Shown in pieces: positions 3,332 to 60,723 of a stretch of 64,000 nt of DNA. The notes under the pieces were generated by a model. The model ran no database searches, was not told where the DNA came from, and saw nothing but the letters and a program-made list of their open reading frames with translations. Position 1 is the first letter of the stretch, and the number at the start of each line of letters is the position of its first letter. The stretch comes from Candidatus Parcubacteria bacterium (GTDB lineage: Bacteria; Patescibacteriota; Patescibacteriia; Patescibacteriales; UBA12075), in contig CAWHBO010000003.1 in the NCBI GenBank assembly GCA_963827735.1, positions 252,676 through 316,675 on the forward strand, read 5' to 3'. The translations under genes were made by a program, and so were the position numbers.

Positions 3332-3437
3332 AAAAATCTCAAAATACAAATAACAAACCCGAAAAGTCCCGTTGGGACCTCGTGTCCTTTACGGGATCAC
3401 AAATAAATTCAAAATTAAAATTGATAAAATATTGATT

Positions 3438-3771
3438 TTGTCATCCCGGAATTTTTTTTGGAGCGTCAGCGAGAAAAAAAATATCCGGGATCCAGGGTTA
3501 GAAGGAAAAAATACGGATTATCCAATAACACTTATAAATAAAAATACAGGATTTAGCTTTTCTAACGTTTTATGATAAATCTTATAAAAATTATATAATT
3601 TTTTCATTTTTATATATAAAATGCTGAAAAAAAATTTTAAAAGAAAAAATATCCCCTATCATGACGAGCGATTCCAAAAAATCTTAACAATACAAGGCTC
3701 ATTCCCCTAAACCCTGGATCCCGGATATTTTTTTTCTCGCTGACGCTCCAAAAAAAATTCCGGGATGACAA
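3438..3771. mobile_element. MITE-like element: two inverted copies of a 62-bp self-complementary unit around an AT-rich core of about 210 bp
   Basis: 3438-3499 (TTGTCATCCCGGAATTTTTTTTGGAGCGTCAGCGAGAAAAAAAATATCCGGGATCCAGGGTT) is the reverse complement of 3710-3771. Each unit is itself a hairpin (ATCCCGGA+T8 pairs with A8+TCCGGGAT). A third copy lies at 30238-30299. Confidence 0.5.
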
Positions 3772-3843
3772 ACATGATATTTTAATTATCTTATTCTTGT
3801 TTTAAAATTTAGCCATTATTTACAAAATTAAAATTTTATCCAT

Positions 3844-6187: not shown

Positions 6188-6285
6188 GGTAACGCACCTT
6201 CCTTTCTAGATGATGTTTTTTAATTTATTTATTAAATTGATTTTTAAATTATTTCTTTCAAAGGTTAATGAAATATTTCTGTTTT

Positions 6286-6366
6286 AATATTCAATATCCA
6301 ATATTTTAATATTCAATTGATCATTAATATATTTAATTATTAAATGAATATTGGTTATTGAATATT
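6286..6366. repeat. ORF-less intergenic hairpin (AATATTC / AATATTG units)
   Basis: 6286-6305 (AATATTCAATATCCAATATT) pairs with 6347-6366 (AATATTGGTTATTGAATATT) at 19 of 20 positions. It lies 6 nt from the hisS stop codon (6373-6375); the AT-rich arm context continues to the stop. Confidence 0.6.
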
Positions 6367-6372
6367 GGTTAT

Positions 6373-8521: not shown

Positions 8522-8616
8522 AACCCACAAATCAACAAATTGCTACAAATCAACAAATCATATTTGACGTTTTTCAAATATTTGTAGATTTGTTGTAATT
8601 TGTTGATTTGTGGGTT
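8522..8616. repeat. ORF-less long hairpin (ACAAATC / CAACAAAT units)
   Basis: 8522-8541 (AACCCACAAATCAACAAATT) is the exact reverse complement of 8597-8616. The inner arms are imperfectly complementary. Confidence 0.65.
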
Positions 8617-10261: not shown

Positions 10262-10398
10262 AATATTCAATACTCAATGATCAATCAATAATCAATATTC
10301 AATATTCAATATTCAATTTTCAAACTTTGCGTTTATCTTATTGATTATTTGAATATTAAAATATTGAATGGTTATTGAGTATTGAATATTGATCATTC
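10262..10398. repeat. ORF-less intergenic hairpin (ATTCAAT heptamer arms)
   Basis: (ATTCAAT)n on the left. 10265-10278 (ATTCAATACTCAAT) pairs with 10374-10387 (ATTGAGTATTGAAT). The element occupies most of the LCP-der spacer. Confidence 0.55.
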
Positions 10399-10435
10399 CA
10401 GATTAAAAATTCAGTATTTTAATAAAATTAAAATT

Positions 10436-11974
10436 ATGAATAATCAACTTCCCGCCGTCGTCATCTTCGGTTGTCCGAACGCCGGAAAATCAACTTTGTT
10501 CAACGCGCTCTGCGGAAAAAGCCACGCGCTGGTTTCTGATACTCCCGGCACGACCAGGGACCTGAATGTCGCCAAGATTGATTGGCAAGGCCATACGATT
10601 GAAATTGTGGATACGGGAGGCATTCTGGATATCGGCATGCTGACAATCTCAAAAAGAAAAGAAAAGAAAATAAAAAACCGCACCACGACTGATGTTGAAA
10701 AAATTGACAAACTTGTCCAAAAAAAAGCTTTTGGAGCGCTCATAAAAGCCGATCTGGTGCTATTTTTGGTTGACGCGCGCGCGGGACTGCTTCCCCAAGA
10801 CAAACAACTGGCTAACTTCGTAAAAAAACATGTTGCCAAAGAAAAAATCGTTCTCGTTGCCAACAAAGTTGACAGCCCCAGGCTCAGGGAGGGAGTGCCT
10901 GATTTCAACAAGCTGGGACTCGGGGAACCAAACATGATTTCCGCCACCACCGGCTCCGGTACCGGCGACCTTTTAGATAAGATAATAAGTTATCTGCCAA
11001 AACAAACGAAATTAGAAACAAATAATATAGATACAGATTCGACATCCCTAATTTCCAATTTCCAATTTCCAATTTCCAATCAAATTAATGTCGCCATCAT
11101 CGGCAAACCGAACGTCGGCAAATCCAGCCTCATCAACAAAATTTTAGGTGAAGAAAAAATCATTGTCAGCCCCATAGCGCATACGACCAGAGAGCCAAAT
11201 GATACGAAAATAAATTACCAAGGCCATATCATAAATCTGATAGACACGGCCGGAATTTCCCGAAGCGGCCAAAAGAACGAAAAAAAGCAAAGCGACAAGA
11301 ACACTTTGGAAAAATTGTCCATCCAAAAATCCCTGGAGACTTTGAACCGAGCCGATATTGCCATTCTCGTAATTGATATCAAAGAAGGGCTGACGAGCCA
11401 GGAATCAAAACTGGCGGAAGAAATCATGAATTCCCGGTCCAGTTTGATCATTCTGGCCAACAAGTGGGACTTGATTAAAGAAAAAAATACCAAAAAAGCC
11501 ACTTCCGACATCTATGCAGACTTGCCTTTTGCCGCCTGGGCGCCGATTCAATTTGTTTCCGCCCTTACCGGACAGAAGATTGAAAAAGTTTTGGATTTGA
11601 TCTTGAAGATTTCTGAGGCGCGCAAAATTTCCATCAGCGATAACGCTCTGTCAAAATTCCTGCATAACACCGTAAAAAAACATTCCCCCATCAAATCCTG
11701 GGGCGTCAAAAAGCCATACATCCATGAGATCAAGCAAGATCGAACCGACCCGCCCGGATTTTCCATCCGGATTGGCGCGGATGATAACTTAAGCGAGGCT
11801 TATGTCCGCTTCATCCAAAAACAGCTCCGGGAAAAATTCGGCTTTCTCGGGACGCCGATCCAAACTTACGTTGACCGCAACAAAAAAGTGCACGGGCATA
11901 ACGATGGCTATGACAACCCGAAGAAAGATAAAAAGAGGAAGCCGGCAGGGAGAGTCAATAAACCGGTCAGATAA
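10436..11974 (+). CDS. der: Ribosome-associated GTPase Der (EngA)
   Basis: Two G-domains (GCPNAGKST and GKPNVGKSS P-loops, two DTGG/DTAG and NKxD boxes) plus a KH-like C-terminus. The start is set at MNNQLPAVVIFG because the ORF-track start at 10382 runs into the spacer hairpin. Confidence 0.9.
   Translation: MNNQLPAVVIFGCPNAGKSTLFNALCGKSHALVSDTPGTTRDLNVAKIDWQGHTIEIVDTGGILDIGMLTISKRKEKKIKNRTTTDVEKIDKLVQKKAFGALIKADLVLFLVDARAGLLPQDKQLANFVKKHVAKEKIVLVANKVDSPRLREGVPDFNKLGLGEPNMISATTGSGTGDLLDKIISYLPKQTKLETNNIDTDSTSLISNFQFPISNQINVAIIGKPNVGKSSLINKILGEEKIIVSPIAHTTREPNDTKINYQGHIINLIDTAGISRSGQKNEKKQSDKNTLEKLSIQKSLETLNRADIAILVIDIKEGLTSQESKLAEEIMNSRSSLIILANKWDLIKEKNTKKATSDIYADLPFAAWAPIQFVSALTGQKIEKVLDLILKISEARKISISDNALSKFLHNTVKKHSPIKSWGVKKPYIHEIKQDRTDPPGFSIRIGADDNLSEAYVRFIQKQLREKFGFLGTPIQTYVDRNKKVHGHNDGYDNPKKDKKRKPAGRVNKPVR
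11050..11080 (+). repeat. TTCCAAT heptamer block translated in frame inside the der linker
   Basis: AATTTCCAATTTCCAATTTCCAATTTCCAAT (31 nt) is identical to the reverse complement of 37412-37442. It is translated ISNFQFPISNQ between the two G-domains. Confidence 0.8.
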
Positions 11975-12032
11975 AAACTATTTTATCATGCCCCTGTTCA
12001 AATTAGGAATACGTAAAACGAAGGATCTAATT

Positions 12033-12158
12033 TTTAATTTACAATTTTCAATTTTCAAACAATGATTGAATTTTCAATTTATCAATGTTTGAAACATTAA
12101 GGAATTAAAAAATTGAAAATTGTTTGAAAATTAAAAATTGAAAATTGAAAATTTTATT
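12033..12158. repeat. ORF-less intergenic hairpin (TTGAAAA / TTTTCAA units)
   Basis: Left arm AATTTTCAATTTTCAAACAAT, central near-palindrome ATGTTTGAAACAT, right arm 12111-12155. The right arm is 45 of 45 identical to 21188-21232. Confidence 0.6.
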
Positions 12159-14377: not shown

Positions 14378-14425
14378 TACTGTATATTTCATATAACAGC
14401 TGATTGTCGTTTAATTCAAAAAGTA

Positions 14426-14518
14426 AAAATCAAAATGCAAAATGACAGTTTAAAATTAAAAAATAATTTTGAATTTTACATTGTCATTTTGCATTTTGAG
14501 ATTTGCATTTTGCATTTT
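14426..14518. repeat. ORF-less intergenic hairpin (GCATTTT / AAAATGC units)
   Basis: 14430-14447 (TCAAAATGCAAAATGACA) is the exact reverse complement of 14482-14499. Extra GCATTTT units follow the right arm. Confidence 0.7.
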
Positions 14519-18081: not shown

Positions 18082-18083
18082 AA

Positions 18084-18593
18084 GATTACGAAATACGAAT
18101 TTGTACGAATATACGAATCCATATTTATTGCTAATATATATTTAGTATTCTTTTATACTTAAGCCCGTTGCTAGTAATTGAGACTAAAAGGCCTAATTTT
18201 AAATTTGTGATTTTTAAATAGCCTAACAACTGTTTTATATTATTATTCGAAAAATACTCTCCTCTTTTAAGTTCAACTACAATTTTTTCTTCTATAACAA
18301 AATCCATAAAATATCTTCCAATCACCTGCCCCTTAAAACTTACTTTATATGGACATTGCGGTATAAATTTAATTTTATTTTCTTTAAAAGATATTTCCAG
18401 CGCTTTTTGATAATGCTTTTCAAGCAACCCTGGACCGAGTAAATTATTTACTTCAAATAATATTCCTATTATCTTATAACTCAAATCCGGATAAAGAATA
18501 TCTTGATTTCTAACCCCTCCTTGCATAGTAAACGACTACAAAAATATATATTAATAAAATTCGTATATTCGTACAAATTCGTATTTCGTAATC
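18084..18593. mobile_element. Inverted-repeat-flanked GxxExxY cassette
   Basis: 18084-18118 is the exact 35-bp reverse complement of 18559-18593. The single ORF 18131-18526 sits in the loop. Confidence 0.75.
18131..18526 (-). CDS. GxxExxY family protein (PD-(D/E)xK-like small protein)
   Basis: 131 aa containing GLLEKHY (the GxxExxY signature) and a downstream DFVIEEKIVVELK (D...ExK-like) segment. Confidence 0.85.
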   Translation of the reverse strand: MQGGVRNQDILYPDLSYKIIGILFEVNNLLGPGLLEKHYQKALEISFKENKIKFIPQCPYKVSFKGQVIGRYFMDFVIEEKIVVELKRGEYFSNNNIKQLLGYLKITNLKLGLLVSITSNGLKYKRILNIY

Positions 18594-21087: not shown

Positions 21088-21232
21088 AATTTTCAATTTT
21101 CAATTTACACCCATTCGGGTACAAGCAATTTTCAAACAATGAATTAATTTTCAATGAATAAATGTTTAAAACATTTAAAAATTATAGAATTGAAAATTGT
21201 TTGAAAATTAAAAATTGAAAATTGAAAATTTT
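21088..21232. repeat. ORF-less hairpin between pheS and pheT (TTGAAAA / TTTTCAA units)
   Basis: Left arm TAATTTTCAATTTTCAATTT. The right arm 21188-21232 is identical to 12111-12155. A central ATGTTTAAAACAT palindrome is present. Confidence 0.65.
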
Positions 21233-22306: not shown

Positions 22307-22314
22307 ATTTTTAT

Positions 22315-22470
22315 CTCATAACTCATAACTTAGAACTCGTAACATTTTTCTCATAACTCGTAACTTGGAACTCATAACTTTTTTTAAAAAATCTTTTAAG
22401 GTTAGATGTTATGAGTTATGAGTTATGAGTTATGAGTTATGAGTTATGAGTTATGAGTTATGAGTTATGT
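22315..22470. repeat. Hairpin with a (GTTATGA)x8 tandem heptamer arm
   Basis: There are eight perfect GTTATGA units at 22408-22463, then GTTATGT. The left arm (CTCATAACTCATAAC..., 22315-22379) is complementary. The element spans the spacer from the pheS start to the stop of the upstream gene. Confidence 0.75.
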
Positions 22471-29273: not shown

Positions 29274-29340
29274 AATGAATAAATCTTACGACAAATTTTT
29301 TTTCCGGAATGACAAGAAAATGATTTTAAAATTGATAATA

Positions 29341-29575
29341 TAAAGCCGACTAAAGTCGGGTAGAAATAATATATATAATTTTATTATTATTTGATAAATT
29401 CCACCCCACTTTAGTGGGCTTTATTATAAAAAATTTTAAAACCATAAAGCCGACTGAAGTCGGGAAGAAATAATATATATAATTTTATTATTATTTGATA
29501 AATTCCACCCCACTTTAGTGGGCTTTATTATAAAAAAATTTAAAACCATTAAGCCGACTGAAGTCGGGAAGAAAT
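29341..29575. repeat. Tandem repeat, 104-bp period, about 2.3 copies, each with two small hairpins (B and A)
   Basis: B units (TAAAGCCGACT[A/G]AAGTCGGG) start at 29341, 29445 and 29549. A units (CCACCCCACTTTAGTGGGC) are at 29397 and 29501. The inter-unit sequences are identical between copies. Confidence 0.8.
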
Positions 29576-29596
29576 TTTTTATAAATTTTATGCCGT

Positions 29597-31338: not shown

Positions 31339-31989
31339 TTACATCCATAAATTTGCCAGATTATTCCGGTCGCGCTGCCATTTTTCAGGATTTTCAATAA
31401 TATATTGACGAATGTTGTCATATGAACTTTCATTGCGGATTATGCGGTCATAATACCTTGACTGCCAGGTGAAATTTGGGATTATTATTTTTGATCCATG
31501 TGTGACGGCTGATTTATATGAACCGATGATAACCGGCAACGATTTTGGTTTGGGTGATATTTTTTGCATTTTACACGATGTTGGATTTAATTCGTTATCC
31601 GCATTCGTTGCATAAATCATGGTGTTATCCAAATCCGCGTCCGTAGAGACGAGGCATGCCTCGTCTCTACACGGGGTGTTTTCCGCTGCATTTGCATTAT
31701 TGTTACACGTCATGTTATCAATCACCACAATCCCATGCACATGGTTCGGCATCACGATATGTTCATTCAAAATAACATTTTTAAAATGCTTTGAAATTTC
31801 TAGCCAATATTTATCTGCTAATTTCCCGATTTCATTCAAAACCATTTTCCCATCAACCACATTCCCGAAAAACATTTCCTTTTGATGCGTACAAATCGTG
31901 ACAAAATATAGTCCATCTTGCGAATAATCATATCCATCCATGCGCGCGGAATCTATACGGTATTTATTTTTAAATAAACCGTTTGACAT
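31339..31989 (-). CDS. REP-associated tyrosine transposase (RAYT, IS200/Y1-like)
   Basis: 216 aa with HUH (PNHVHGIVV) and WQSRYYDRIIRNE...YIIENPEKW motifs. The linker between them contains the REP palindrome. Confidence 0.85.
   Translation of the reverse strand: MSNGLFKNKYRIDSARMDGYDYSQDGLYFVTICTHQKEMFFGNVVDGKMVLNEIGKLADKYWLEISKHFKNVILNEHIVMPNHVHGIVVIDNMTCNNNANAAENTPCRDEACLVSTDADLDNTMIYATNADNELNPTSCKMQKISPKPKSLPVIIGSYKSAVTHGSKIIIPNFTWQSRYYDRIIRNESSYDNIRQYIIENPEKWQRDRNNLANLWM
31643..31670. repeat. 28-bp REP palindrome inside the RAYT ORF
   Basis: GTAGAGACGAGGCATGCCTCGTCTCTAC is a perfect palindrome, translated ...PCRDEACLVST.... Confidence 0.85.
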
Positions 31990-32083
31990 ATCCCTCCTTG
32001 ATTAATTTTATTTTTAATATTTTTATGTAGTTTGTAATTTTGCAACCGTTGGGCAAAATATATGCGGCGGCGGAATTTGCGAC

Positions 32084-32111
32084 GTAGAGACGAGGCATGC
32101 CTCGTCTCTAC
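32084..32111. repeat. 28-bp REP palindrome, second identical copy
   Basis: The same 28-mer lies between the LamG gene stop (32121) and the RAYT start (31989). Confidence 0.85.
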
Positions 32112-32120
32112 ACATGGGCA

Positions 32121-35100
32121 CTACTGGAATCTCACCGCCCCTCCCCCATACTCCATCTTAACCTGCTCCTCCGTCAAAGCATAATTCCAAATCTTAACAT
32201 CATCGATAAGGCCAGTTAAAAAGCTCATGCTTCCGGCGCGACTGCCGAAATAAAGAGGTTCATCACCAAAATTATTCGTGTTATCTGCGTTTACGATTCG
32301 ACTGGACGGCGTTTGAAGTATTCCATCTATATATAATTGATTTTCATTAATTCCATTGGCATTCTTATCACCAATATATACAAAATGATGCCAAACATCT
32401 ATTCTGGGAGTTGCCCAGCAATTAGCATTGTCTCCAACATTACCTCTGGTATATGCACCGATCGTTCCTGCCGGACAACCACCTATACCACTATCTACAT
32501 ATACCGCAAAACCATTATTAAATGAACTTGTATCAGTTGTAAGTTCAAAAAGACCTTCTATATTATCAAAACTTGATTTTTTAACCCAAAAAGAAAGTGA
32601 TATCGTAGGCGTACTGCTCAAATCAAAACTATTGATTAATGCATAATCACTCCCCCCATCAAAACTCCCCCCAGAATTGTTTTTCCCTACTCTTCCATTA
32701 TACCAAAAAGAATTAGACGAAGACGCGCAAGTCCCGGTCGCGGTGACACCGGTTGCGCCCAAGAAAAGCTGTCCATGATTGCCATTCCCTGAATCATCAT
32801 GAACAACCCCGCCCGCGCATTCATCAAACTTCCAATGCGCCACCGGCTTTCCGCCATTATAGTCCCAAGCGATTTGAGCAGGCGTGCGGGCGTAGTTGTA
32901 GATTTTGACATCGTCAAGAGATCCGTTATAACTATTCTGGCAGCTACTACCATTCCACTCTCCTCCAATACACAATTGATGTGTTGTATCTTTTAAATTA
33001 CCTGTAAATGCAACTGGAGTGGCAATACTTTTACCGTCTGAATATAAACGTATATACGATCCGTCATATACACCTGTAATATAATGCCATCCTTTCTCAA
33101 CAAATGAATCATCGCTCTCTACTCCATTTTCCGTATTGGATGAATTGGTTACCAAAAAGACAATACTTCCACCGGAACTAACCATTTCTCTATATAATGA
33201 CCACCCATAAAAACCACTTCTAAGTCTGTTTACAAAAATTTCATCATTTACAGTTAAATTATCAAAGTTGACCCAGACATTAACTGTTAAAGCCGACCCT
33301 TCTCCGATTGACTGATTTGTACTGTACACATAATCACCCCCATCAAAATCCAAAGCCCCACCCTTCTTCCCAACAAAATCCCAAGTGGCGCCGGTGATGG
33401 CGCCATTATTCCCATTCCCCGAAGTATCAAAGACAGTCCCGCCGGACAATTCATCAAACTTCATCTCCAAAACCGGCGGAGTGCAGACGGCCGTATCCCC
33501 CGGAATGCAATATTCTTTATTAGCGCCGGTCACGGCCGTGCCATTGTTATCGCGACTCGCGTCACTCCCCAAGACCGCCGCCTTGCCCAAATTATATTCC
33601 GCCTTTATTTCATCTTCATTCAAAGCAAAATTCCAGATTTTCACTTCGTCCATTAAACCATTCAAAGAACCATCTGAATAGCTATCATTTAAATAACCTA
33701 AATATACTGGATCATTATCATAAGTATTAGTGTGCACATAGTCATATATGCCTAACACCGTCTTATTAACCAGATCCCCATCTATATAAATTATAGTTTG
33801 TGCTTCTGCTGTGTCTTGATTTCTGTCCATAACTGCTATAACATTGTGCCACTGATTATCATCATATCTATTATTCGTACAATAAGCTGAATAGTTATCA
33901 GAAGACGATATCATGATTGTACAAATACTTCCAAGAGATGGTGGGTCATATCCGCTTGAGTTATCACTAATGTCAATAAAAAATCCATTCTCGCTTGCAT
34001 CAGGTGTCCAAGAATAAGTAAGAAAAATTTCCGGAGTATAAGAACTAATAGGTTGATGCTTCATCCAAAAAGAAACTGTAGCTATTTTTCCGGTTATATC
34101 AAGATTGGAAATAGTTTTTACACCATCATCCACCCCATCAAACTCCATCGCCCCTCCCAATTTTCCATCCTTGGTCCACATGGCGGAAGAAGCGGTATTG
34201 GCTCCGCCCGTGCCGGGCTGAAGCAGGCCGTCATTGCCAAAGATACTCGCGTCATGCGCCACCGCCCCATACCCTTCATCAAAACTCAAATGCAAAACCG
34301 GTGACTTCACCGCCAAATTCCCCGCATTCATGTCTTCCAAAATTTGTTTCTGCGTGCGGGCGTAATTATAGATGCGAACGTCGTCGATTAAACCGTCAAA
34401 TGGTAAATCAAGCGCGCCTCTATTTCCAATATTGATATCTAAACCGTTATTCCAATATTGTGTTCCTGGAATTCCAACAGTATCTTCGTATGTCATTATT
34501 CCATTAAGGTAAAACCTTAAATAACTTGAAGGTTCAAAAATGCCGACAACAAATGTCCATTCTTCCGGATTAGCATAAGCATATGATTGTCTAATGTTTG
34601 TTCCGTCAGCAGCAATGGTAAACGCGTATTCATCCGGTGAAGCTTCTCCTTCTACGCTTAATCCCCAAGCTCTCTGCCCGGAACCACCCATTTTACCGAT
34701 AACATACTGATTTGATGTCAGCGCCTCTCCATGTTTTATCCAGGCCGTAACAGTCATTCCGCCACTAATCATCAAATCATTTGGTTCACCAATATTTACA
34801 TAATCATCCACCCCATCAAAATCCAAAGCCCCGCCATACTTCCCCTGCGCCCAAGTGGCTCCGCTTATGCTTCCATGATTCCCGCCCGCAAAACTGGAAC
34901 TCGCCACCGAATCATAGGCGGTCGCGCCGGTCGCTTCATCAAATTTCCAATGAGCCACCGGCCCCGGCGCCCATTCATAAAGCTTTCTGATTTCATTTGC
35001 CGATAAAATTCGATTATAAATTCTGATTTCATCCATTTTTCCATTAAATTCATAATTAGTATCTTCTACCATTCCAATCATTAAATTATGGCTTGAATCA

Positions 35101-37502
35101 TCAGATATATCTCCCGAAGGAAAATCATAAACCACATAGCTTACTTCCAAACCATTTGCCCAAAATTTTAAATTTTCAAGATTTGTTTTTCCGTCATAGG
35201 TTACACAAATATAATGCCAAATACCTGTAGCAAAATCATAATTCATGGTAGCAATTAAATAGCTCACATCAAATTGCTGATAAAAAGCAATACCGGATTG
35301 ATAATATAAATTCCAACCAATCATTCCAGTCCCTTGATCTTTACCAATAATATATTGATCGCCCAAACTATCAGGTTTTAACCAAGCACATATTGTTTTA
35401 TTGGTTAGATTATCAAGCGAAGAATCTGAACCAGCATAAATACCGTCGTCAGTTCCATTAAAACTCCCCCCATTCCCATACTTCCCCGCTGTCGTAGAGG
35501 CATCGCCATAATAGGTGCCGGTGTTGCCATTGCCACTCGCATCAATCGCTCCGCTCGTGGTGGCGCTTTCATCAAACTTCCAATACCCCACCAATCCATC
35601 CGTCATCCATTTATCAGAGGCCGAACCAAAGGCGGCCGTCGCACCCTTGGGGGTGCTTTGGCCTGCTAAACCGGCGGCATAGTCCTGCTTGATTTGATCC
35701 GCCGTGCGGGCGTAGGGGTAGATTTTGACTTCGTCCAAATATCCAATCACACCTTCGTAATTATCTGCCGCGTAACCAACTCTCATGCTAGTATAATCAG
35801 TATCATTCGTAAATTTACCGTTATTACTTCCCGCACCGACCGATATTGGTTTAGAAATTCCATCTATATAGATACCATATTCTTCATCGGCTGTTAGGCA
35901 GACATGGTGCCAGGCATTATTGAATAACGAACGATCTGTATCTGTGAAACCGATATCTTGATTACCGCCATCATATATCCATAAATGAATCACTTCATCT
36001 GTCAAAAACGAACTAGCTCCGTTTCCAATCTGAAGATCAAATGCACTGCTTGACCCGTCACTGAAACTTAATAAAGTTTGCGATTGATCACTGCCAGTCT
36101 TTACCCAGGCGCAATAGGTACCATTGGATAACAATAAATTCGCATAACTGCTTACACCGGCATAATCATTGCCGTCAAACCATAAACACTTCCCGGCAAC
36201 GCACTCACTCTCCTCTTTCCAAACCGCGCCGGTGATGGTGCCGTTGTTATTGTTGGCGCTGGAATCATTGGCCACGGTGCCGTAGCCTTCATCAAACGAC
36301 CAGTAGCCGACAGGGCCGGGGCCGGTTTCTTCTGTTTGAGCCGAAAGGAAAGTGGTTGGGTCGTTTTGATTGTTGTATTCGGTGGCGATCCAGGTGGCAG
36401 AACGTACTGAACGGGAAATTTTGGTTTCATCAATCAATCCATGAAATTCATAAATCAAATCAACAAAAGTACCAAAGTATAAATCATTGGCCGAATCATC
36501 CGCGCGGCCAGCACCATCTTGATACCCGGTAGAACTTGCTATACCATTTCTATATAATATAATATTATTTCCGCCAATTCCGTTTTGTGTAGCGCAAAGA
36601 TAATGCCAAATGTTAGTCGCAATTACTGGTGCCGAATTTACTCTAAAAGTATATGAAGAAGAACTGCTATAACTTGAGCCAAATCCACCGGTTTGTTCTA
36701 AATACAAATCCCAGCCAGCATTAGTAACGCTATCCAATTTACTAACTATAGCTGGATACTCATTGGGTGTAGTTATTGGCTTTACCCAAGTACAAACGGT
36801 AAAATTTTGCAATCTATTCAAACTGGCACTTTTGTTCACCTTGACATAATCATTATCACCATCAAAACTAAACGCCCCGCCCAATTTTCCGTTTGGCGTG
36901 CTGGAGGCATTATAACCGGCTACCCCGTTATTGCCAAATGCCGTGCTGTCACTGCCTGATGCGGTCGCATCATTCGGAAAATGCCAGACTCCGACAAAGT
37001 TTTCATCCCAAACACTCTCAGCCGTTTCCTGACTACCCACCCCCGCGTTGCCATAATACATAAAAATATTAGCGTCCACTCCCTGTGTCATCGTCGGCAT
37101 CTTGACCCAAGCCACCAGCGCGCCGGTCGTGGTGGCGAAAGATTCAATTTCATGGGATAATTTTTCGCCGTTGGCGGATATAAAAATAATGTCATCAGCG
37201 TCCGCTTGCGCATGCGTTCCCAAATCAGCATCAGTCAGGCTGACCAACATGGGGAAGTTTTCCAAATTGCCGGCGATCTTTGAACCATTGATCGTGATAG
37301 CTTTGCGGTAATTCCAAGAGTCGTTCCACCAGGTCGCTTCTACTTCACTGGGTTTTTTTATGAGAAAAAATATGGTTGAAGTAATAACAATCAAGCCAAT
37401 AACAATAAGAAATTGGAAATTGGAAATTGGAAATTGGAAATTTAAAAATCTTCTCAAAGAAAGAGTTGGTTTTTCTAATATAATTTTATTAAATAATTTC
37501 AT
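32121..37502 (-). CDS. Giant LamG (concanavalin-A-like lectin) repeat surface protein with an N-terminal DUF2341-like domain
   Basis: 1793 aa with an N-terminal TM segment and WWNDSWNYRKAITI...NFPMLV (DUF2341-like). At least 7 modules end in the LamG_3 signature (L[IM]D[DE]V[KR]I[YW]N.A[LR]...I). Confidence 0.9.
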   Translation of the reverse strand: MKLFNKIILEKPTLSLRRFLNFQFPISNFQFLIVIGLIVITSTIFFLIKKPSEVEATWWNDSWNYRKAITINGSKIAGNLENFPMLVSLTDADLGTHAQADADDIIFISANGEKLSHEIESFATTTGALVAWVKMPTMTQGVDANIFMYYGNAGVGSQETAESVWDENFVGVWHFPNDATASGSDSTAFGNNGVAGYNASSTPNGKLGGAFSFDGDNDYVKVNKSASLNRLQNFTVCTWVKPITTPNEYPAIVSKLDSVTNAGWDLYLEQTGGFGSSYSSSSSYTFRVNSAPVIATNIWHYLCATQNGIGGNNIILYRNGIASSTGYQDGAGRADDSANDLYFGTFVDLIYEFHGLIDETKISRSVRSATWIATEYNNQNDPTTFLSAQTEETGPGPVGYWSFDEGYGTVANDSSANNNNGTITGAVWKEESECVAGKCLWFDGNDYAGVSSYANLLLSNGTYCAWVKTGSDQSQTLLSFSDGSSSAFDLQIGNGASSFLTDEVIHLWIYDGGNQDIGFTDTDRSLFNNAWHHVCLTADEEYGIYIDGISKPISVGAGSNNGKFTNDTDYTSMRVGYAADNYEGVIGYLDEVKIYPYARTADQIKQDYAAGLAGQSTPKGATAAFGSASDKWMTDGLVGYWKFDESATTSGAIDASGNGNTGTYYGDASTTAGKYGNGGSFNGTDDGIYAGSDSSLDNLTNKTICAWLKPDSLGDQYIIGKDQGTGMIGWNLYYQSGIAFYQQFDVSYLIATMNYDFATGIWHYICVTYDGKTNLENLKFWANGLEVSYVVYDFPSGDISDDSSHNLMIGMVEDTNYEFNGKMDEIRIYNRILSANEIRKLYEWAPGPVAHWKFDEATGATAYDSVASSSFAGGNHGSISGATWAQGKYGGALDFDGVDDYVNIGEPNDLMISGGMTVTAWIKHGEALTSNQYVIGKMGGSGQRAWGLSVEGEASPDEYAFTIAADGTNIRQSYAYANPEEWTFVVGIFEPSSYLRFYLNGIMTYEDTVGIPGTQYWNNGLDINIGNRGALDLPFDGLIDDVRIYNYARTQKQILEDMNAGNLAVKSPVLHLSFDEGYGAVAHDASIFGNDGLLQPGTGGANTASSAMWTKDGKLGGAMEFDGVDDGVKTISNLDITGKIATVSFWMKHQPISSYTPEIFLTYSWTPDASENGFFIDISDNSSGYDPPSLGSICTIMISSSDNYSAYCTNNRYDDNQWHNVIAVMDRNQDTAEAQTIIYIDGDLVNKTVLGIYDYVHTNTYDNDPVYLGYLNDSYSDGSLNGLMDEVKIWNFALNEDEIKAEYNLGKAAVLGSDASRDNNGTAVTGANKEYCIPGDTAVCTPPVLEMKFDELSGGTVFDTSGNGNNGAITGATWDFVGKKGGALDFDGGDYVYSTNQSIGEGSALTVNVWVNFDNLTVNDEIFVNRLRSGFYGWSLYREMVSSGGSIVFLVTNSSNTENGVESDDSFVEKGWHYITGVYDGSYIRLYSDGKSIATPVAFTGNLKDTTHQLCIGGEWNGSSCQNSYNGSLDDVKIYNYARTPAQIAWDYNGGKPVAHWKFDECAGGVVHDDSGNGNHGQLFLGATGVTATGTCASSSNSFWYNGRVGKNNSGGSFDGGSDYALINSFDLSSTPTISLSFWVKKSSFDNIEGLFELTTDTSSFNNGFAVYVDSGIGGCPAGTIGAYTRGNVGDNANCWATPRIDVWHHFVYIGDKNANGINENQLYIDGILQTPSSRIVNADNTNNFGDEPLYFGSRAGSMSFLTGLIDDVKIWNYALTEEQVKMEYGGGAVRFQ

Positions 37503-37944
37503 AATTTCTAATTTCCAATATTTATTTATCTTTATAAACTAATCTACTGCAAGATTTAATATAAGTATTTAATTTCATGTGTAATATATTTAATTCTTTC
37601 ATTAATAAATCATATTCATTATCAAGAATTATATTTCTTTTGTTAAGTAAAAATGTCCAATGTTTTGATTCCATCAGTGAGCCTCTGGAATTATAATAAA
37701 ATTTTATCTTATCTTTGTGATGATATCGCCCATAGCCTTCGGCGATATTAGCACCAATAGAATCTATGGCTGTAATAAACTGATCTCCAATTACTTTCTT
37801 GATTTGCCAATGCATTTTTTCATAGACTTTCCAGGCGATATTGCTTAATTTTAATGACAATCTATATATTTCTAAATCACCTAATTTCAAATATTCTGAC
37901 ATAATTTCCAATTTCCTAATTTCTAATTTCCAATTTCTAATTTC
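37409..37944. mobile_element. Four-helix-bundle cassette bounded by TTCCAAT/ATTGGAA heptamer blocks
   Basis: Block 1 at 37409-37443 is (GAAATTG)n. Blocks 2 (37503-37519) and 3 (37901-37944) are (AATTTCC/AATTTCT)n in the opposite orientation. Confidence 0.7.
37522..37911 (-). CDS. Four-helix-bundle protein (family formerly annotated as 23S rRNA intervening-sequence protein)
   Basis: 129 aa with DQFITAIDSIGANIAEGYGRYHHKDKIKFYYNSRGSLMESKHW, typical of the family. Confidence 0.9.
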   Translation of the reverse strand: MEIMSEYLKLGDLEIYRLSLKLSNIAWKVYEKMHWQIKKVIGDQFITAIDSIGANIAEGYGRYHHKDKIKFYYNSRGSLMESKHWTFLLNKRNIILDNEYDLLMKELNILHMKLNTYIKSCSRLVYKDK

Positions 37945-37945
37945 A

Positions 37946-39625
37946 TTATTTCAATATCATCTTCTCCTTCAAAATCACTCCTTCTTTAAAAATAATCGGA
38001 CTGCCCTTTTGTGCCGCTTCCGTAGTAAACTGGATATATTCGCCATAGCCGGTGCCTTCGGCATTGACGGCATAAGCGCGAATGAAATAATTCGTGCCGG
38101 GCGATAAATTATCTATTACCAATTCATATTCGCCAGAAGAATAAGTTCCGGTTTCGGATTTGGTCCAAGTGTCAGCCGCGGTCAAACCGTATTTGAATCC
38201 TCTTTCGGTAATATCCGCACCCATACGCTCGCTGATACCGCGGGCGGTTATCGCCTTTGATCCGATGCCGGTGGGGGGAAGCGTGGTGACATAGGGCGCG
38301 CCGGTATATTCCATTGTATATGAATCCAGGTCATGATTGAAGTTGATCCAGCCGATATTTTCGCCCCAGGCATAGCCGCTGAAACGCCCATTGTCCAAAT
38401 CAATTACAACTTGTTCGTGCGTAGTATTGAAATTGATCCAGCCGATATTCTCGCCCCAAGCATAGCCGCTCAAAGCGCCCTGGTCATTGGTCACGCCCCA
38501 ATCCGTGGCGGTGGTATTGGTAGCGCCGGCCGTGCCGTTATAATCAAATTTGATCCAGCCGATATTCTCGCCCCAGGCGTAGCCGGTCAGGCCGGCTTCG
38601 GATACGGTGATCATTTCATGGGTAGAGCTGGCATTGACCCAGCCGATATTTTCGCCCCAGGCGTAGCGCCGGTCGCCGCTGAAATGATTGTAGGCATAAG
38701 CGATTTCCTCGCCGAATTGAAATTTGAGAGTATGATCGCCGGCTTTGATGGTATTGTGGATTATTCGGCCGGTCTCGGCGCATTCCCAATTTTCAAAATA
38801 AATAATATCGCCGGATAAAATTTCGGGGGTGCGCAAATCTTCCCCGCACCACAGCGACACAAATTCATCGTCGTTAACGGTCGCCTGGTCATTGGGTGTA
38901 ATTATCAGATCAGCCATACCCTCGGTGGTGAAATTCACTTCCCAGTCGTCGCCGGTCAAAGGCTGTGAATACAGATTCAAAATACTTATTTCAACACTTG
39001 GGTCCAGAATAATCGGATATTTATGCGCAGACAGCCAAGCCGGGTCGGGCGTTAAAGTCAAAATATTATTTTCAAATTTCATTTTCACGTCTGTAACCAA
39101 ACTTTCTTCACCGTTAGCATCTATCATAAATGCGGCCGGAATAGTAAAAATTAAATCCAAAGGATTTGGTTCATTGGAATCTTTGATTTTGTGTTCTTGG
39201 CTATAAAAATTCAAATTGCCTTGGCTGTCTGACCTGGCTTCCAGTCCCTGGGCATCTATTTTAAATTCAAAAATTTCCGGATGACCGGGCTGTTTCAATA
39301 TTATATCTTCTTTAATTTCATAGCCGAAAACCGATTGTACCACATCCGTGTTTTGATAAGCGTTGATATATTCAACTTTGCGCAAGCAATTTTGGTCCGA
39401 ATTTTCCGCTTCACTAAGCAGCGTCATTTCAGCATAGGCCGGCTTGATAAAGATACTTTCATCATTTCGCATCAACTTCATGCCATCTGGATATGCATCC
39501 GGCAAAACATAAGCAAAGGCGGGGGCTGGTTTATTGGACACTAAAAGAAAAGCCAATAAAAACGCTCCGCTAACTAAAAGCGATAATATTAATAAATAAA
39601 TAATTTTAAATTTCTTTTTTTTCAT
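37946..39625 (-). CDS. Secreted protein with four GYAWGENIGWI repeats and a C-terminal FN3-like domain
   Basis: 559 aa with a signal peptide (…APAFA), four copies of [GR]YAWGENIGW[IV][NK][FA], and an FN3-like end (LSPGTNYFIRAYAVNAEGTGYG). The start lies 3 nt after the stop of the ATPase gene. Confidence 0.8.
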   Translation of the reverse strand: MKKKKFKIIYLLILSLLVSGAFLLAFLLVSNKPAPAFAYVLPDAYPDGMKLMRNDESIFIKPAYAEMTLLSEAENSDQNCLRKVEYINAYQNTDVVQSVFGYEIKEDIILKQPGHPEIFEFKIDAQGLEARSDSQGNLNFYSQEHKIKDSNEPNPLDLIFTIPAAFMIDANGEESLVTDVKMKFENNILTLTPDPAWLSAHKYPIILDPSVEISILNLYSQPLTGDDWEVNFTTEGMADLIITPNDQATVNDDEFVSLWCGEDLRTPEILSGDIIYFENWECAETGRIIHNTIKAGDHTLKFQFGEEIAYAYNHFSGDRRYAWGENIGWVNASSTHEMITVSEAGLTGYAWGENIGWIKFDYNGTAGATNTTATDWGVTNDQGALSGYAWGENIGWINFNTTHEQVVIDLDNGRFSGYAWGENIGWINFNHDLDSYTMEYTGAPYVTTLPPTGIGSKAITARGISERMGADITERGFKYGLTAADTWTKSETGTYSSGEYELVIDNLSPGTNYFIRAYAVNAEGTGYGEYIQFTTEAAQKGSPIIFKEGVILKEKMILK

Positions 39626-39628: not shown

Positions 39629-40753
39629 TTAAAAAATAAAACCTTCAAGATCGCGAGGCGTCAGTATTTTGTAGTCGATGCCGGCGGTACAGCCTGCTTT
39701 TTTTTTCAAATTACCATTAAATTTAAATTCATATCCTTTCAATTCGCCTCCGGCTTCTTCCAAAAGATCAATTTCAGCGCCGTCGTATGTCCGTAAGAAA
39801 TAAGCATTGGCGCGTTTTTGTCGATTGTTTCGGTATTTTAACCTTTCAATGATCATAAAATTTTCCCACAAAGCGCCGGTATCGGCCCGGCTATCCAACG
39901 GATTAAAATTATTGATTACCGCGTTCCTGATACCTAAATCATAAAAATAAATTTTCCGTAATTTGGAAATTGTTCTTCGCTTATTTGTAGAAAAAGGCTC
40001 AAGCCGGAATATGATATAATTTTTTTCCATCAAATCAATGTATCTTTCCACGGTTTTTTTCTCTATGCCGATGATATTGGATAATTCGTTATATGATGCT
40101 TCCGATCCGACCTGCAAAGCCAAGGCCTTTAATAACGAAAACAAGACAGATGAATTTTTTACCTGCTGAAATTCCATGATATCTTTAAAAAGATTGCTTG
40201 AGCATAATTCATCAAGCAAATCTTCTTTTTCAGCCTGTCCATTTAACGCCACCACGCCGGGATAAGTTCCATATATCAAACGACTAGGTAGCTCTTTATC
40301 AAGCGATAATAAATTTCCATCAGGATACATTTCCTCCATAGATAAAGCATGCAGTCTGAAAACGAATTTGCGTCCGGTAAGCGGTTCTGAGGTTTTGTCC
40401 AAGAGGTTCAGGCTGGATGAGCCGGTCGCGATTATTTGTATCTTTTTGCCATGGGCATCCACCAATAATTTCAAAGTTTGGCCAATCGTTTCCACTTTTT
40501 GCGCTTCATCAATAAAAACAAACTTGTTTGAGCCGATTATTCCATTCAATTCTTCCAAATTTTTATTATTCAAAGATTCCCGGTCTTTGGGGTTGTCAGC
40601 ATTAAACCTGATAATACCGTCTTTACCTGAATATTCATTCAAAATTTGTTCCGACAAAGTGGTTTTGCCAACTTGTCTGGCGCCGACAATAATAATTGCT
40701 TTTCCTTGAAACAATTTATCTGATATTAGCTTTTTAATTTTTCTTTGATACAT
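39629..40753 (-). CDS. AAA-family ATPase with a DUF4143-like C-terminal domain
   Basis: 374 aa with Walker A GARQVGKTT and Walker B FVFIDEAQ. The overall layout is that of the AAA_14+DUF4143 family. Confidence 0.85.
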   Translation of the reverse strand: MYQRKIKKLISDKLFQGKAIIIVGARQVGKTTLSEQILNEYSGKDGIIRFNADNPKDRESLNNKNLEELNGIIGSNKFVFIDEAQKVETIGQTLKLLVDAHGKKIQIIATGSSSLNLLDKTSEPLTGRKFVFRLHALSMEEMYPDGNLLSLDKELPSRLIYGTYPGVVALNGQAEKEDLLDELCSSNLFKDIMEFQQVKNSSVLFSLLKALALQVGSEASYNELSNIIGIEKKTVERYIDLMEKNYIIFRLEPFSTNKRRTISKLRKIYFYDLGIRNAVINNFNPLDSRADTGALWENFMIIERLKYRNNRQKRANAYFLRTYDGAEIDLLEEAGGELKGYEFKFNGNLKKKAGCTAGIDYKILTPRDLEGFIF

Positions 40754-42139: not shown

Positions 42140-45100
42140 TTATCTCGCACACCTAAACCCAATCGTACTCGTCGCCATCGCCGGCGAATAAGAAGTATCC
42201 AAATCATACAAAGCCGAGGCGCCGCGTACAAAACCGCGGATCAGTTCAGCGTTGTCCCCTGTCTTAACCCGCCCGATGCCGTTGTCCGATGAGTAGTAGT
42301 AAGGCGGATTTATGTTAAAGCCTTTGAAGTCAGAGATCTCAAAATATTCATGCCAATCGTTATCAATCGGTTCAAAAATTCCGGCCTGCGTCACGATCTG
42401 ATTCGTCCACTCGCCGACGCCGCCGACAAGATCATAAATTATATTATCATTAGACAAGACCAAGCCAATAGAAGTGGTGGAAACATACTCGTGATTTGTG
42501 CAATTCGTCAACAATTCGTGTTCATCCGTGTAAGCGAAAGCCGGTAATTGCAGACCGATGCTAACATCGTCGCAGTCATTTTTGCTAACGCGTATGGCAT
42601 TTTCCGCAATCGTCAACCATTCATTTTCTGAAATTAAGTGATAACCATCCCCAATCGCCTGGCAAGTCAAATCCGCTTCACCCTGCGTTACGTTCACCCA
42701 CGGCATTCGTGATTCGTGCTCATTCGTCATAAATTCGTGTTCATTCGTTTCAACACAGAAGCCCGGCATCGTCCCATACTTCGCCGAACCTGGTACCCAG
42801 ACATAACCATCATCACAATACCCCGCAAACGCTCCCGCCACCACTGTGCCTTCCACGCCCATATCGCCCAGCGTGGAATCAACCGCCGAGTCAAGCGCTT
42901 CGCCGCAACCTGCTCCGGAGCAGACCATCAAGCGGCCGTCAATCGCCATTTCTCCCACCACTGAAACTTTTCCGTCATCGGCGATGTTAACGATGGATAC
43001 GCCGCCAGCCCGGAAGTCAGCCACATCGCCAGTGCCTTTCTGATTGATGACAAACGCGGTCACGTCGGAGGTGGTGGCTGTTATTATCTCTACCAGTGCT
43101 TCCGACTCATAAACCGCCACCGTGGATGTTGATTGGCTGTCAACGATTTGCGCTTTTACTTCGCTGTCATTGGTAAACACGATTGACCCGTCGGCCGTTA
43201 CCGAGAACGCTTCTTGGGAGCTTGACCCTGTTGTTTCTTCTGCCAGAGCATGGGCAATGGCGGAAGCAAGATCAAGCTCCTCAAGCGCGCTGATTCTATG
43301 ATCAATTTCCCCTAAACCAGACAATTGTAACTCATAACTCGTAACTCGTAACTCCAAAGCAGCCATGCGGCTGATTAGGTTATCGATGCCAGCAGTTACA
43401 TTTGCCAGCTCTCCGGTCACGCCGTTCACCGCCACAGTCAACCTTGAATCAAAAGATGCTATCTGTTCGTTAACGATGGGCTCAACCGAGCTGGCTATAT
43501 TATAATCATTGATTGCGTTTTGGAGCATGATCGCCACTTCATCCTCAATCTCCATGGCGGCGATATGTTCGGTAATTTTCTGTTCAACCGATTCCACGGT
43601 CAAAGATTTGTTCCTACGGCTGATCAATACATTTATCATTCCATATTCAACTTCATCGGGTGTTGAAGAGCTAATTTCAGGGAGCGAAGCGACCGAATTT
43701 CCTAATTTCTCAAGTGCTACACCCACAGTCGGTTCTCCCGCCGCCGCCTTTCTCATATACCCCGGTCTAGATGCCGATGTCAACGAATCCCCTGGTCTGA
43801 TTTCTCCGTTTTCCGTGGACACCAAAGCGGGGATCTGCCCGAGCATGGCGATCGCTTTATAATTTATATTATCAACATATTCATCTTTGGCATTGCCGAG
43901 AATGGCGGGCTTGGTGGACACGATGCCCATCACGTTGTCATCGGCGCCGCGCTCACAGCGGTTGACGGTGTTGTTGTTCGCCACGTCCACGCAGACCGCT
44001 TCGCCGGATTTGAGATCCGTATCATTGGTACGGAAATATTCAGCATAGTCGGCGGCCGGGGTCGTTCCGGTCTGGTCATACGCATAACTGCCGTCGGCGT
44101 TGATCCGGAAGGCTGTCCCGGTTTCATTTCTGACTGTAAACATCGCCAAGGTGCTGGAAGAGGTGGTAGCGATGCTTAAAGCCGCGTTCGGAGTGGAAGT
44201 GCCGATGCCGATGCGGTTGTCTTGCGTGTTAAAGTAAATCAAATCGTCAATCGTGGTGGTACCGGTGATGATCATTTCGTCATCCACAACCACTTCACCC
44301 AAATTGGCCGCGCTCAAAGTCAAATTCAAATTCTCCCAACCGGATTCAGTCTTGATATAGCCGGGGCCATTGGAGAATATGATGTTGCCGCTGGAATCAT
44401 TGGAGAAAATCAAATCATAAGCCATGCTCACATCGCCGGCCGCGCCGAAGATGACTGGGTTATTAAAGGTGGTGTTGGCGCCGGTGATGGTGACGACATC
44501 AGTGCCGTTGCTGTTCAAATTCAAGATTGGTCCGTCGCCGTCCACTCTGACAGACAAACCGGAGGATGAAGCCATTTGGGAAGAGTTGTATATATAGAAA
44601 AGATAATCAGTGGATGAAGCGGTCACTTCCAGTAAGTGTGTTGGGGCGGTGGTGCCGATGCCAAAATTTCCTCCAGTCAAATAACTGTTACCATCGGTAT
44701 CAAAAACCACTCTGGTTGAATAGCCAGAATCAGCCATTTTGAACATCAGACTGCCACCAGTCGGATAATATATACCGCCTAATTCAGTCCCACCTGGGCT
44801 GGTTATTTGAATTGGATAAGTATCTGCGCTTCCAACTCTTACCTCCAAACCATCTGTATATGAATGCAAGCTATTACCTGTTCCAATCCCCACATTCCCC
44901 GCTTCATTAATCACAAACAAATTGGAGCCGGTCGTGGAGGAGGCGACGGTGAAGATATTTGAAAGCGTAGTTGTGCCAATACCGATGCGACCATTTGCGT
45001 CAATTCGCATGCGTTCATTATTTACATTTGATCCACCTGTATAAAATCGCATATCACCAGTTGTCGCTTCAGCTAAAAGATCTAGTCCGCTTGAATTAGT

Positions 45101-60166: not shown

Positions 60167-60183
60167 GGGGATGCTTTTTGTTT

Positions 60184-60721
60184 AAATTCCAAATTACAAA
60201 TAACAAATTACAAATAATATCAAAAATCCAAATTTCAAAACAAATTTCAAAACTTTATTTTGATTTTTCCAAGATTTTACAAAATATCTTTTTCAGTTCC
60301 TCTGCTTCCTGGATTAATTTTTCAATCTCTTCTTTGAATATATTATCATTATTGGCTTTTATAATTTTTAACCAAAAATTGCTTTCTTTCGCTTCCTTGC
60401 GGCATATTTTTATTCTCATAAAAAATCTTTTTTGCTTAACGCTTCATTGGCTTCAATATAGTTTGCCCCAACTGAACCGCTAGATCTTACAACTTGCTTT
60501 CCATCCTCAGTGTTACTGACTGTTTTATATAATTTTTTCAAAAATTTTCTGACATCAATCGCAAATTCCCGTGTCCTATCCTCCAAATCATAAATTTTTT
60601 TATTAAATATTTCTGTCATTTGAATTTGTTATTTTGATATTATTTGTCCCGCTCTTTATATCTTTTAGTAAGCGGGATCCCGCTGAAAGCGGGAAAATTT
60701 GTTATTTGTAATTTGGAATTT
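60184..60721. mobile_element. Inverted-repeat-flanked (26 bp, perfect) four-helix-bundle cassette between two giant genes
   Basis: 60184-60209 (AAATTCCAAATTACAAATAACAAATT) is the exact reverse complement of 60696-60721. The right arm ends 2 nt before the stop of the upstream giant gene. The left arm lies 18 nt upstream of the 6008-aa gene ATG. Confidence 0.8.
60255..60619 (-). pseudogene. Four-helix-bundle gene split by a 1-nt frameshift (67-aa plus 54-aa parts with an ATGA overlap)
   Basis: Part 1 (60416-60619) ends ...ANYIEANEALSKKDFL*. Part 2 (60255-60419) reads MRIKICRKEAKESNFWLKII.... Together they reconstitute a full-length family member. The junction GATTTTTTATGAGA lies in homopolymer runs. 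Confidence 0.7.
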
Positions 60722-60723
60722 AT

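Follow-up and report, generated by a model that had tools for sequence, protein, structure and literature searches.

The subject of this analysis is a small element at positions 37409-37944, on the minus strand, of a 64,000-nt stretch of DNA from a Candidatus Parcubacteria bacterium (contig CAWHBO010000003.1), which we refer to in its entirety as the window. On balance, we take this element to be a cassette of the intervening-sequence (IVS) type, in which a gene for a four-helix-bundle protein of the PF05635/TIGR02436 family lies between inverted arms composed of GAAATTN heptamers. The cassette is located between two protein-coding genes, and its 3' arm is, to judge from the sequence, almost certainly translated as part of the downstream gene, which encodes a giant protein with LamG domains.

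Three genes, all on the minus strand, make up the site. The upstream gene (37946..39625, from the list of open reading frames [ORFs] and the sequence) encodes a secreted protein of 559 residues and ends with a TAA at 37948-37946. One base separates this stop codon from the end, at 37944, of the first heptamer array (block 3, 37944-37903), which constitutes the 5' arm, contains about six GAAATTN heptamers and directly precedes the ATG of the four-helix-bundle gene (37522..37902; 126 aa; stop codon at 37524-37522). Five bases from the stop codon of the small gene is block 2 (37503..37519), 2.4 units of the 5'-arm repeat in direct orientation, extending up to the most likely start codon of the downstream gene, an ATG at 37500..37502, itself 19 nt from the stop codon of the small gene. 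Block 1 (37443-37409), the 3' arm, begins 58 nt beyond the ATG at 37502 and reads as five copies of AATTTCC on the sense strand. The downstream gene (32121..37502) encodes a 1793-aa DUF2341 protein with seven Laminin_G_3 (LamG) domains; we refer to it as the LamG gene. The three blocks are real and non-random. As a preliminary description of the sequence had proposed, they belong to one heptamer family, and all three were recovered by Tandem Repeats Finder, by a repeat finder and by a pattern search: block 1 as 4.9 copies of GAAATTG (100% match), block 2 as 2.4 copies of AATTTCT/AATTTCC (sequence GGAAATTAGAAATT) and block 3 as 5.9 copies of AATTTCC/AATTTCT (86% match). With two mismatches or fewer allowed, the heptamer dimer GGAAATTGGAAATT occurred 21 times in the window, as compared with 2.8 ± 1.6 times (maximum 7) in shuffled sequences.

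The four-helix-bundle gene is intact. Its product matched PF05635 (E = 3.9e-22) and TIGR02436 (E = 2e-23) and has kept all of the residues that are invariant in a 25-member alignment of the family. A search of the PDB with the single sequence returned no match, but the family profile matched the pentameric four-helix-bundle structures 2RLD and 2GSC. The preliminary description had placed the start of the gene at an ATG at 37911, inside block 3; position 37911 is instead an in-frame TTG, and the start is the ATG at 37902-37900, which adjoins block 3 on its 3' side. The closest homologs begin with MSDYIKLG or MPDYIKLG, which align with the MSEYLKLG encoded from the ATG at 37902, and the gene called independently on a Logan contig likewise encodes 126 residues. 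The exact 559-aa protein was found only on one 9-kb contig, which stops inside block 1.

A repeat search revealed that positions 37409-37456 pair with positions 37897-37944, a 48-nt inverted repeat with 79% complementarity whose halves are 440 nt apart. In predicted folds of the transcript of 37380-37960(-), block 3 was paired with block 1 in both the minimum-free-energy and the centroid structure, a pairing that encloses the whole of the small gene, as had been anticipated; the fold had an energy of -115.6 kcal/mol (z = -3.6), and none of 100 shuffles was as good. Block 1 is also complementary to block 2, and the two duplexes have, on paper, energies of -40.0 kcal/mol (block 3:block 1, about 40 bp) and -14.3 kcal/mol (block 2:block 1). 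When block 3 was blocked, the predicted fold changed to the block 2:block 1 hairpin, in which the LamG AUG is partly paired. The AUG, which the preliminary description had put in a loop of about 60 nt, is at the 5' edge of the loop of this hairpin, and the G of the AUG and the next five bases are paired, so that the start codon is partly sequestered. A scan of the window with Rfam gave no matches, neither to rRNA nor to any other RNA family, and the cassette, being located between the 559-aa gene and the LamG gene, is not inserted in a helix of 23S or 16S rRNA. A scan for terminators found none, and promoter-like matches were what AT-rich DNA should give.

Cassettes of this kind recur in other genomes. 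Scanning species-representative genomes yielded 72 loci that encode relatives of the four-helix-bundle protein, 69 of which were analyzable. The closest relatives (66-67% identity) were in Candidatus Falkowbacteria; other loci were found in further Patescibacteria, Bacteroidota, Elusimicrobia, Planctomycetes, Campylobacterales and metagenome-assembled genomes labeled as gamma-proteobacterial. A locus was scored as having arms if its best ungapped flank-to-flank inverted repeat scored 14 or higher and exceeded all of 20 shuffles, and by this measure 43 of the 69 loci had significant flanking inverted repeats. The arms often began no more than 10 nt past the upstream stop codon and ended no more than 15 nt before the next start codon, and almost all of the cassettes (53 of 57) were in the same orientation as both of their neighbors. 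A test for the period of the arms, which five loci passed, was too strict to be informative.

The sequence of the arms proved to be specific to the encoded protein. When the protein was at least 50% identical to the query, the arm core was GAAAT, GAAAC or GAGAT, and for more distant four-helix-bundle proteins it was GTAAT, GTAAC, GTCAT or GGCAT. A second family, GxxExxY, named after the type of gene that accompanies rRNA IVSs, was found at 23 metagenomic loci, and 14 of the 18 that could be analyzed had significant arms, in this case composed of TAC(G/T)AA units. Around the four-helix-bundle genes each flank contained GARAY 3.1 and 2.7 times, as compared with 0.7 and 0.45 times in the control windows, whereas the count of TACKAA was 0.03; the flanks of the GxxExxY genes contained TACKAA 2.7 and 2.6 times and GARAY 0.6 times. 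Because the counts are reciprocal between the two families, the arm motif evidently travels with, or is recognized by, the family that the cassette encodes. Moreover, in the two nearest relatives of our cassette both arms are composed of octamers (L001) or both of heptamers (L002), and thus the two arms change together. Arrays of these heptamers are abundant and disrupt assemblies, as judged by two observations: words of the (AATTTCC/AATTTCT)n arm of L002 (3383-3422) reached a depth of about 1450x and were present in many unrelated contigs from groundwater and soil metagenomes, and contigs, including the Logan contig that carries the 559-aa gene, break off inside such arrays.

Two sister cassettes are present in the window, also on the minus strand, and together with the family matches and the inverted arms they uphold the proposal of the preliminary description that the small gene and its arms form a unit. 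One of them (18083-18594) contains a GxxExxY gene (18131..18526; PF13366 and TIGR04256, of the PD-(D/E)XK type) between 36-nt arms of TACGAAT units that are 100% complementary, and it fills the whole gap between the stop codon of pheT and the ATG of the next gene (18081). The other (60183-60722) contains a four-helix-bundle gene (60255..60619) that has been split by a frameshift in a run of T's into ORFs at 60416..60619 and 60255..60419. Its 27-nt arms are likewise 100% complementary; the 5' arm begins 1 nt past the stop codon of a 1081-aa gene, and 16 nt separate the end of the 3' arm from the ATG of a 6008-aa gene. Thus, in all three cassettes of the window the 5' arm starts 0-1 nt after the upstream stop codon. 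The cassettes occur singly, scattered among housekeeping genes, and the window was found to contain no further copy of the GAAATTN cassette. Hairpins without an ORF were also found. Two of these, in the der-pth gap (12029..12153, composed of AATTTTC/GAAAATT) and in the pheS-pheT gap (21088..21230), are copies of one near-identical palindromic element of about 140 nt that differ by an 18-nt insert, and therefore the class appears to be dispersed in the manner of a miniature inverted-repeat transposable element (MITE). Other ORF-less hairpins of tandem heptamers or octamers are located at 6217-6373, 8522-8616, 10262-10411, 14413-14516 and 22312-22469; the gaps occupied by ORF-less hairpins are those at the 3' end of hisS, between the LCP gene and der, between der and pth, between dprA and topA, between pheS and pheT, and upstream of pheS. 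GxxExxY cassettes have conserved termini (CTTCTACTAAATAC...GTATTTAGTAGAAG) at several insertion sites, for example between atpD and atpC, and these termini and the two ORF-less copies give the class the hallmark of MITEs and of elements with terminal inverted repeats, namely the same termini at unrelated sites.

We now turn to the 3' arm as coding sequence. As the preliminary description had noted, block 1 lies inside the LamG ORF, where it supplies codons 21-31 (NFQFPISNFQF), between a basic RR and the hydrophobic core LIVIGLIVITSTIFFLI. The stretch that encodes the signal anchor, a transmembrane segment (FQFLIVIGLIVITSTIFFLI), is at 37359..37418 and is followed by KKPSEVEATWWNDSWNYRK (the start of DUF2341). 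LamG/DUF2341 homologs have a basic n-region (Arg/Lys) and then 17-21 hydrophobic residues, the last of them about 12 residues ahead of WWNDxWxYRK; the roughly 19 hydrophobic residues and preceding basic residues that they need are available only if translation starts before block 1. Upstream of block 1, the sole alternative to the ATG at 37502 is an in-frame TTG at 37457-37455. Downstream of block 1, the sole canonical in-frame start is a TTG at 37393, 15 nt past the arm, and initiation there would leave a core of about 11 residues and no basic n-region. Because both the basic residues and much of the core would be lost in that case, initiation almost certainly occurs at the ATG at 37502 or the TTG at 37457.

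Translation of the 3' arm is not peculiar to this locus. Inspection of the sequence shows that the AATTTCC repeats contain a stop codon in none of the frames, and therefore such arms are readable in any frame. The arm was translated as a leader or signal peptide at L001, L002, L029, L034 and L051. In L002, the closest related cassette, the downstream gene overlaps the end of the four-helix-bundle gene through an ATGA and reads MRKYSFKFPISNFQFLISLLLSIGIFLLFPSPSKA; its product is unrelated to LamG and has a signal peptide that begins with the heptamer-coded sequence FPISNFQF. The downstream reading at L001, where both arms are octamers, is MKFPNFPISQFLLISFVLIIGIFYFGQTAFGA. At L034 the arm belongs to a prepilin leader (MKKTPITNYQLPITSSG|FTMIELLV), and at L029 and L051 it is within signal peptides. 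At L001 and L051 no canonical in-frame start exists 3' of the arm. Since the 3' arm is translated at no fewer than five other loci, including the two closest relatives, we take the arm in the LamG gene to be genuine coding sequence.

Did the cassette donate a new N-terminus to the LamG protein, as the preliminary description had suggested? For the 11 residues encoded by the arm, the comparison of sequences supports the view that it did: a peptide resembling FQFPISNFQF was present in none of 15 LamG/DUF2341 homologs, and so the N-terminal comparison that had been called for shows the peptide to be new. The ATG and the first 20 codons may also have come from the cassette, or the array may have entered a leader that was already present. 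Examined as a possible remnant of the 5' end of a four-helix-bundle gene, these codons gave no significant local alignment with the 5' coding region of the cassette at this site (p = 0.43), and when block 2 was added to the alignment the score was driven by the repeat itself; the similarity of the same codons to the 60-kb cassette had a p value of about 0.02-0.07. In another genome a GxxExxY cassette is located directly upstream of a LamG homolog, and in that case the arm ends 7 nt before the ATG, outside the ORF. We also observed, in contigs resembling those of the candidate phyla radiation (CPR), giant LamG/DUF2341 genes that are preceded or split by small genes of a selfish type, namely GxxExxY, DUF559, GIY-YIG, PemK and NYN genes (L073, L074 and L075).

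Orthologs of the 559-aa protein (58-62% identity) have the same C-terminal end (...ILK*) and no arm past the stop codon, and the LamG gene is not downstream of the 559-aa gene at those loci. As to the neighborhood of this gene, an AAA_14/DUF4143 ATPase gene is located at 39629-40753 (-), with two or three such genes in tandem at L101 and L102; AAA_14/DUF4143 genes and genes with an Lcl_C domain are syntenic with the 559-aa gene, and the synteny breaks past the 559-aa stop codon.

How might these features be explained? The small cassette is probably mobile. We propose that it is a selfish element, at least formerly mobile, that would lie in the sense orientation in a host operon, immediately after the upstream stop codon. 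In the transcript a stem of about 40 bp would enclose the small gene and so bring the flanking cistrons together, and the stem may be processed, the equivalent stem in the rRNA versions being cut by RNase III. The 3' arm would be read through, so that 11 residues are added where the basic n-region meets the hydrophobic core; read-through would be permitted because AATTTCC has no stop codon in any frame and because signal-anchor leaders may be expected to tolerate extra residues. Any effect on LamG would be a side-effect of the element: the long stem would hinder initiation at the LamG AUG, and so would the weaker hairpin of blocks 2 and 1 whenever something occupies block 3. Ribosomes that reach the end of the small gene, 19 nt upstream of the LamG start, would mask block 2 and so free the AUG. 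Meanwhile, the heptamer array at the ATG of the small gene may aid translation of that gene or binding of its product. Because the same arrangement recurs in other genomes, the presence of the arm in the LamG gene seems to be a by-product of the element, not a switch made for the purpose. More speculatively, and here we have more doubt than confidence, the pentameric ring of the four-helix-bundle protein could bind five or six GAAATTN units of its own arms, as RNA or single-stranded DNA, and the GxxExxY nucleases could likewise bind TACKAA; each cassette would then be a self-recognizing module that governs how it is expressed or moves and, by way of the shared stem, how a host gene with an invaded leader is translated.

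Several considerations weigh against our interpretation of the site as an IVS-type cassette that inserted in the operon and acts through a stem in the mRNA. No empty site was found in a close relative. (A joint between 2921 and 3486 of L002, considered as a candidate for an empty site, was rejected: its 25-nt anchor was weak, and the signal peptide would be deleted as well.) No target-site duplication is visible at any of the three cassettes in the window. The spacer between the stop codon of the small gene and the 3' arm, 79 nt that comprise block 2 and the 20 LamG codons, exceeds that of most cassettes. Mismatches in the arms comprised 61 G-U and 48 A-C pairs, without a clear G-U bias on the sense strand, and hence selection could act on DNA as easily as on RNA. 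Formation and cleavage of the stem in the LamG mRNA, and its coupling to LamG translation, are inferred. Finally, a cut by RNase III would remove the LamG start codon, and cleavage is therefore probably absent, partial or regulatory at this site.

Four other explanations have to be weighed. The preliminary description had read the site as a dedicated translational switch, in which block 1 would pair in turn with block 2, concealing the LamG AUG, and with block 3, enclosing the small gene. In its favor, the energies (-14.3 and -40.0 kcal/mol) allow both pairings, the fold does move to block 2:block 1 with the AUG partly paired once block 3 is blocked, and the small gene stops close enough to the LamG AUG (19 nt) for coupling to be geometrically possible. 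We nevertheless consider a dedicated switch quite unlikely, since neither L001 nor L002, the two nearest cassettes, has an equivalent of block 2, the long stem is generic to the class of element regardless of which gene is downstream, and no covariation supports the switch. A further alternative is that the element works only as DNA, its arms being terminal inverted repeats or hairpin sites in single-stranded DNA for transposition or recombination, bound perhaps by the encoded protein or by an enzyme acting in trans, with no role for RNA. The conserved termini of GxxExxY cassettes at different sites, the dispersal of ORF-less copies, the specificity of the arm motif to the protein family, the lack of an excess of G-U over A-C and the presence in the window of a gene for a RAYT-like Y1 transposase (RAYT, REP-associated tyrosine transposase) with hairpin repeats would all suit such an element. 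Yet the nearly exclusive sense orientation in operons and the fit from stop codon to start codon imply constraints at the level of transcription or translation, target-site duplications were not seen, neither of the encoded proteins is a known transposase, and the rRNA relatives are processed as RNA. We therefore judge a purely DNA-level role to be unlikely, although less so than a dedicated switch.

The two remaining alternatives have very little probability in our estimation. If the LamG protein started downstream of block 1, a possibility raised in the preliminary description itself, the arm would be non-coding and the cassette fully intergenic, which would be in keeping with the ending of the 3' arm just before the next start codon in most cassettes, and the 15 nt between the arm and the TTG at 37393 would resemble the 16 nt of the 60-kb cassette. 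Such a start is disfavored, and to our minds very improbable, in that about 11 hydrophobic residues without a basic n-region would have to do the work of the 17-21 residues and Arg/Lys of the homologs, and several other loci have no possible start at all after the arm. Still more improbable is that the three blocks arose by independent microsatellite slippage, as unrelated expansions of a common heptamer whose complementarity is incidental. A solo, perfect array of (AATTTCC)x4.4 does exist at 11050..11080 (+), inside der (10436..11974), where it encodes ISNFQFPISN in the linker that joins the two GTPase domains of Der/EngA, and groundwater metagenome contigs contain AATTTCC arrays at very high copy number. 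The array is degenerate (SPISQYPNSLISNQ) in a relative with 89% Der identity by alignment (87% in the search table), and more distant Der orthologs have unrelated linkers; thus, heptamer arrays in coding sequence evidently arise and homogenize in situ. Slippage does not account, however, for an inverted arrangement around the four-helix-bundle gene at 43 of 69 loci, for a motif tied to the protein family, or for arms that change together, both being octamers in L001 and both heptamers in L002, and these recurrence statistics have already largely refuted it.

We also considered and set aside two kinds of known system. An integron gene cassette does not fit, as arms are present on both sides, the cassettes are dispersed singly and no integrase was among the genes scanned. 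As to a diversity-generating retroelement, the adjacent genes are those for the 559-aa secreted protein, the LamG protein and the AAA_14/DUF4143 ATPase, with no reverse transcriptase gene adjacent; no reverse transcriptase was found among the neighbors scanned against Pfam, which were not all of the ORFs of the window, and template and variable repeats were not searched for.

IVS elements, S23p proteins and the heptamers of Coxiella are already known. To our knowledge, however, no function or mechanism of mobility has been established for IVS elements and S23p proteins in some 30 years, and discussion of them has been nearly confined to rRNA. Correia elements (CREE) of Neisseria and the ERIC/IRU elements of enterobacteria are small elements with inverted-repeat ends that lie between co-transcribed genes. 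Cleavage of their RNA stems by RNase III or RNase E alters the expression of neighboring genes. Unlike the cassette described here, they have neither an ORF nor tandem-heptamer arms, and we know of no case in which they have been absorbed into signal peptides.

The closest parallel is the IVS with an S23p ORF in Coxiella burnetii and Leptospira, which shares with our cassette a PF05635 ORF, a length of about 430-540 nt and an inverted-repeat stem that encloses the ORF (PMC4990558). RNase III excises the 428-nt 23S rRNA IVS of C. burnetii at the inverted-repeat stem; this IVS has three to four tandem heptamers, variable in number among strains, directly before the ATG of S23p, and the ORF is decaying (PMC4990558). 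Tandem heptamers are likewise found immediately 5' of the ATG here, in block 3, and the frameshifted cassette at 60 kb recalls the decay of the Coxiella ORF. The cassettes differ in location (helix 25 or 45 of the rRNA for the known elements, a site between protein-coding genes here), in the heptamer (GAAATTN here and GACAGAT in Coxiella), and in the fate of the 3' arm, which is here translated in the next gene, whereas excision by RNase III is known for the rRNA versions. ORFs of the 23S_rRNA_IVP family also occur in rRNA insertions of CPR bacteria, the same radiation and the same protein family as here (PMC11270868); those insertions are in 16S and 23S rRNA genes, and the passages of that report brought up by term searches do not mention arms, tandem motifs or mRNA-borne copies. 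Avd, an accessory protein of diversity-generating retroelements, has a homologous pentameric four-helix-bundle fold and works together with nucleic acid and reverse transcriptase (PMC10053308), but the four-helix-bundle gene here is flanked by inverted arms of tandem motifs. The short tandemly repeated repetitive (STRR) heptamers of cyanobacteria and the TAACTGA repeats of Beggiatoaceae, cyanobacteria and Bacteroidetes occur in tandem between genes and often stop 1 nt short of a start codon; both break assemblies, and their patchy phylogenetic spread suggests horizontal transfer (PMC4679880). Unlike the arms described here, they have been described as direct repeats with no partner arm, no enclosed gene and no reported link to four-helix-bundle or GxxExxY proteins (PMC4679880). 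In distant four-helix-bundle cassettes (L061-L067) we observed upstream arms of GTAACTN/GTAATCA, which resemble the TAACTGA heptamers. The resemblance raises the possibility that the TAACTGA repeats and the arms of L061-L067 may be linked phenomena, and an arm-binding system could have left the STRR and TAACTGA arrays of cyanobacteria and Beggiatoaceae behind as solo footprints.

Full-text searches of the literature found no description of operon-borne cassettes with family-specific tandem-motif arms, of their placement from stop codon to start codon, or of absorption into signal peptides. What the present analysis adds is that cassettes of the IVS type live in ordinary operons of many phyla, where they fit exactly between stop and start, that the arm motifs are specific to the encoded protein, and that the arms can be absorbed into the signal peptides of neighbors. 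The interest lies mainly in the hints to the function of the four-helix-bundle and GxxExxY families, from which comes the testable hypothesis that the cassette protein binds its own arms. The cassettes are in addition a possible source of new N-terminal coding sequence; they explain why CPR assemblies break at heptamer arrays; and, for annotation, genes downstream of such cassettes may start upstream of the arm.

Finally, we note other repeats in the window. The RAYT-like, IS200-like gene is located at 31339-32111 (-), and a 28-nt palindrome (GTAGAGACGAGGCATGCCTCGTCTCTAC) is present once upstream of it (32084-32111) and once within its coding sequence (31643-31670). Between two plus-strand genes, at 3410-3799, is a 390-nt element whose 90-nt arms are 89% complementary and enclose an AT-rich loop of 210 nt; this element looks like a different MITE-type insertion. 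A 104-nt unit is repeated 2.4 times (94% match) at 29340-29591, in the gap after a gene for a 990-aa UvrD/PD-(D/E)XK helicase-nuclease, and each unit contains short GC-rich hairpins. The 6008-aa gene downstream of the frameshifted cassette (42140-60166, -) encodes a secreted giant protein with long, near-identical internal repeats, and 96-nt tandem repeats were reported on the plus strand inside this gene, at 52361-52607.

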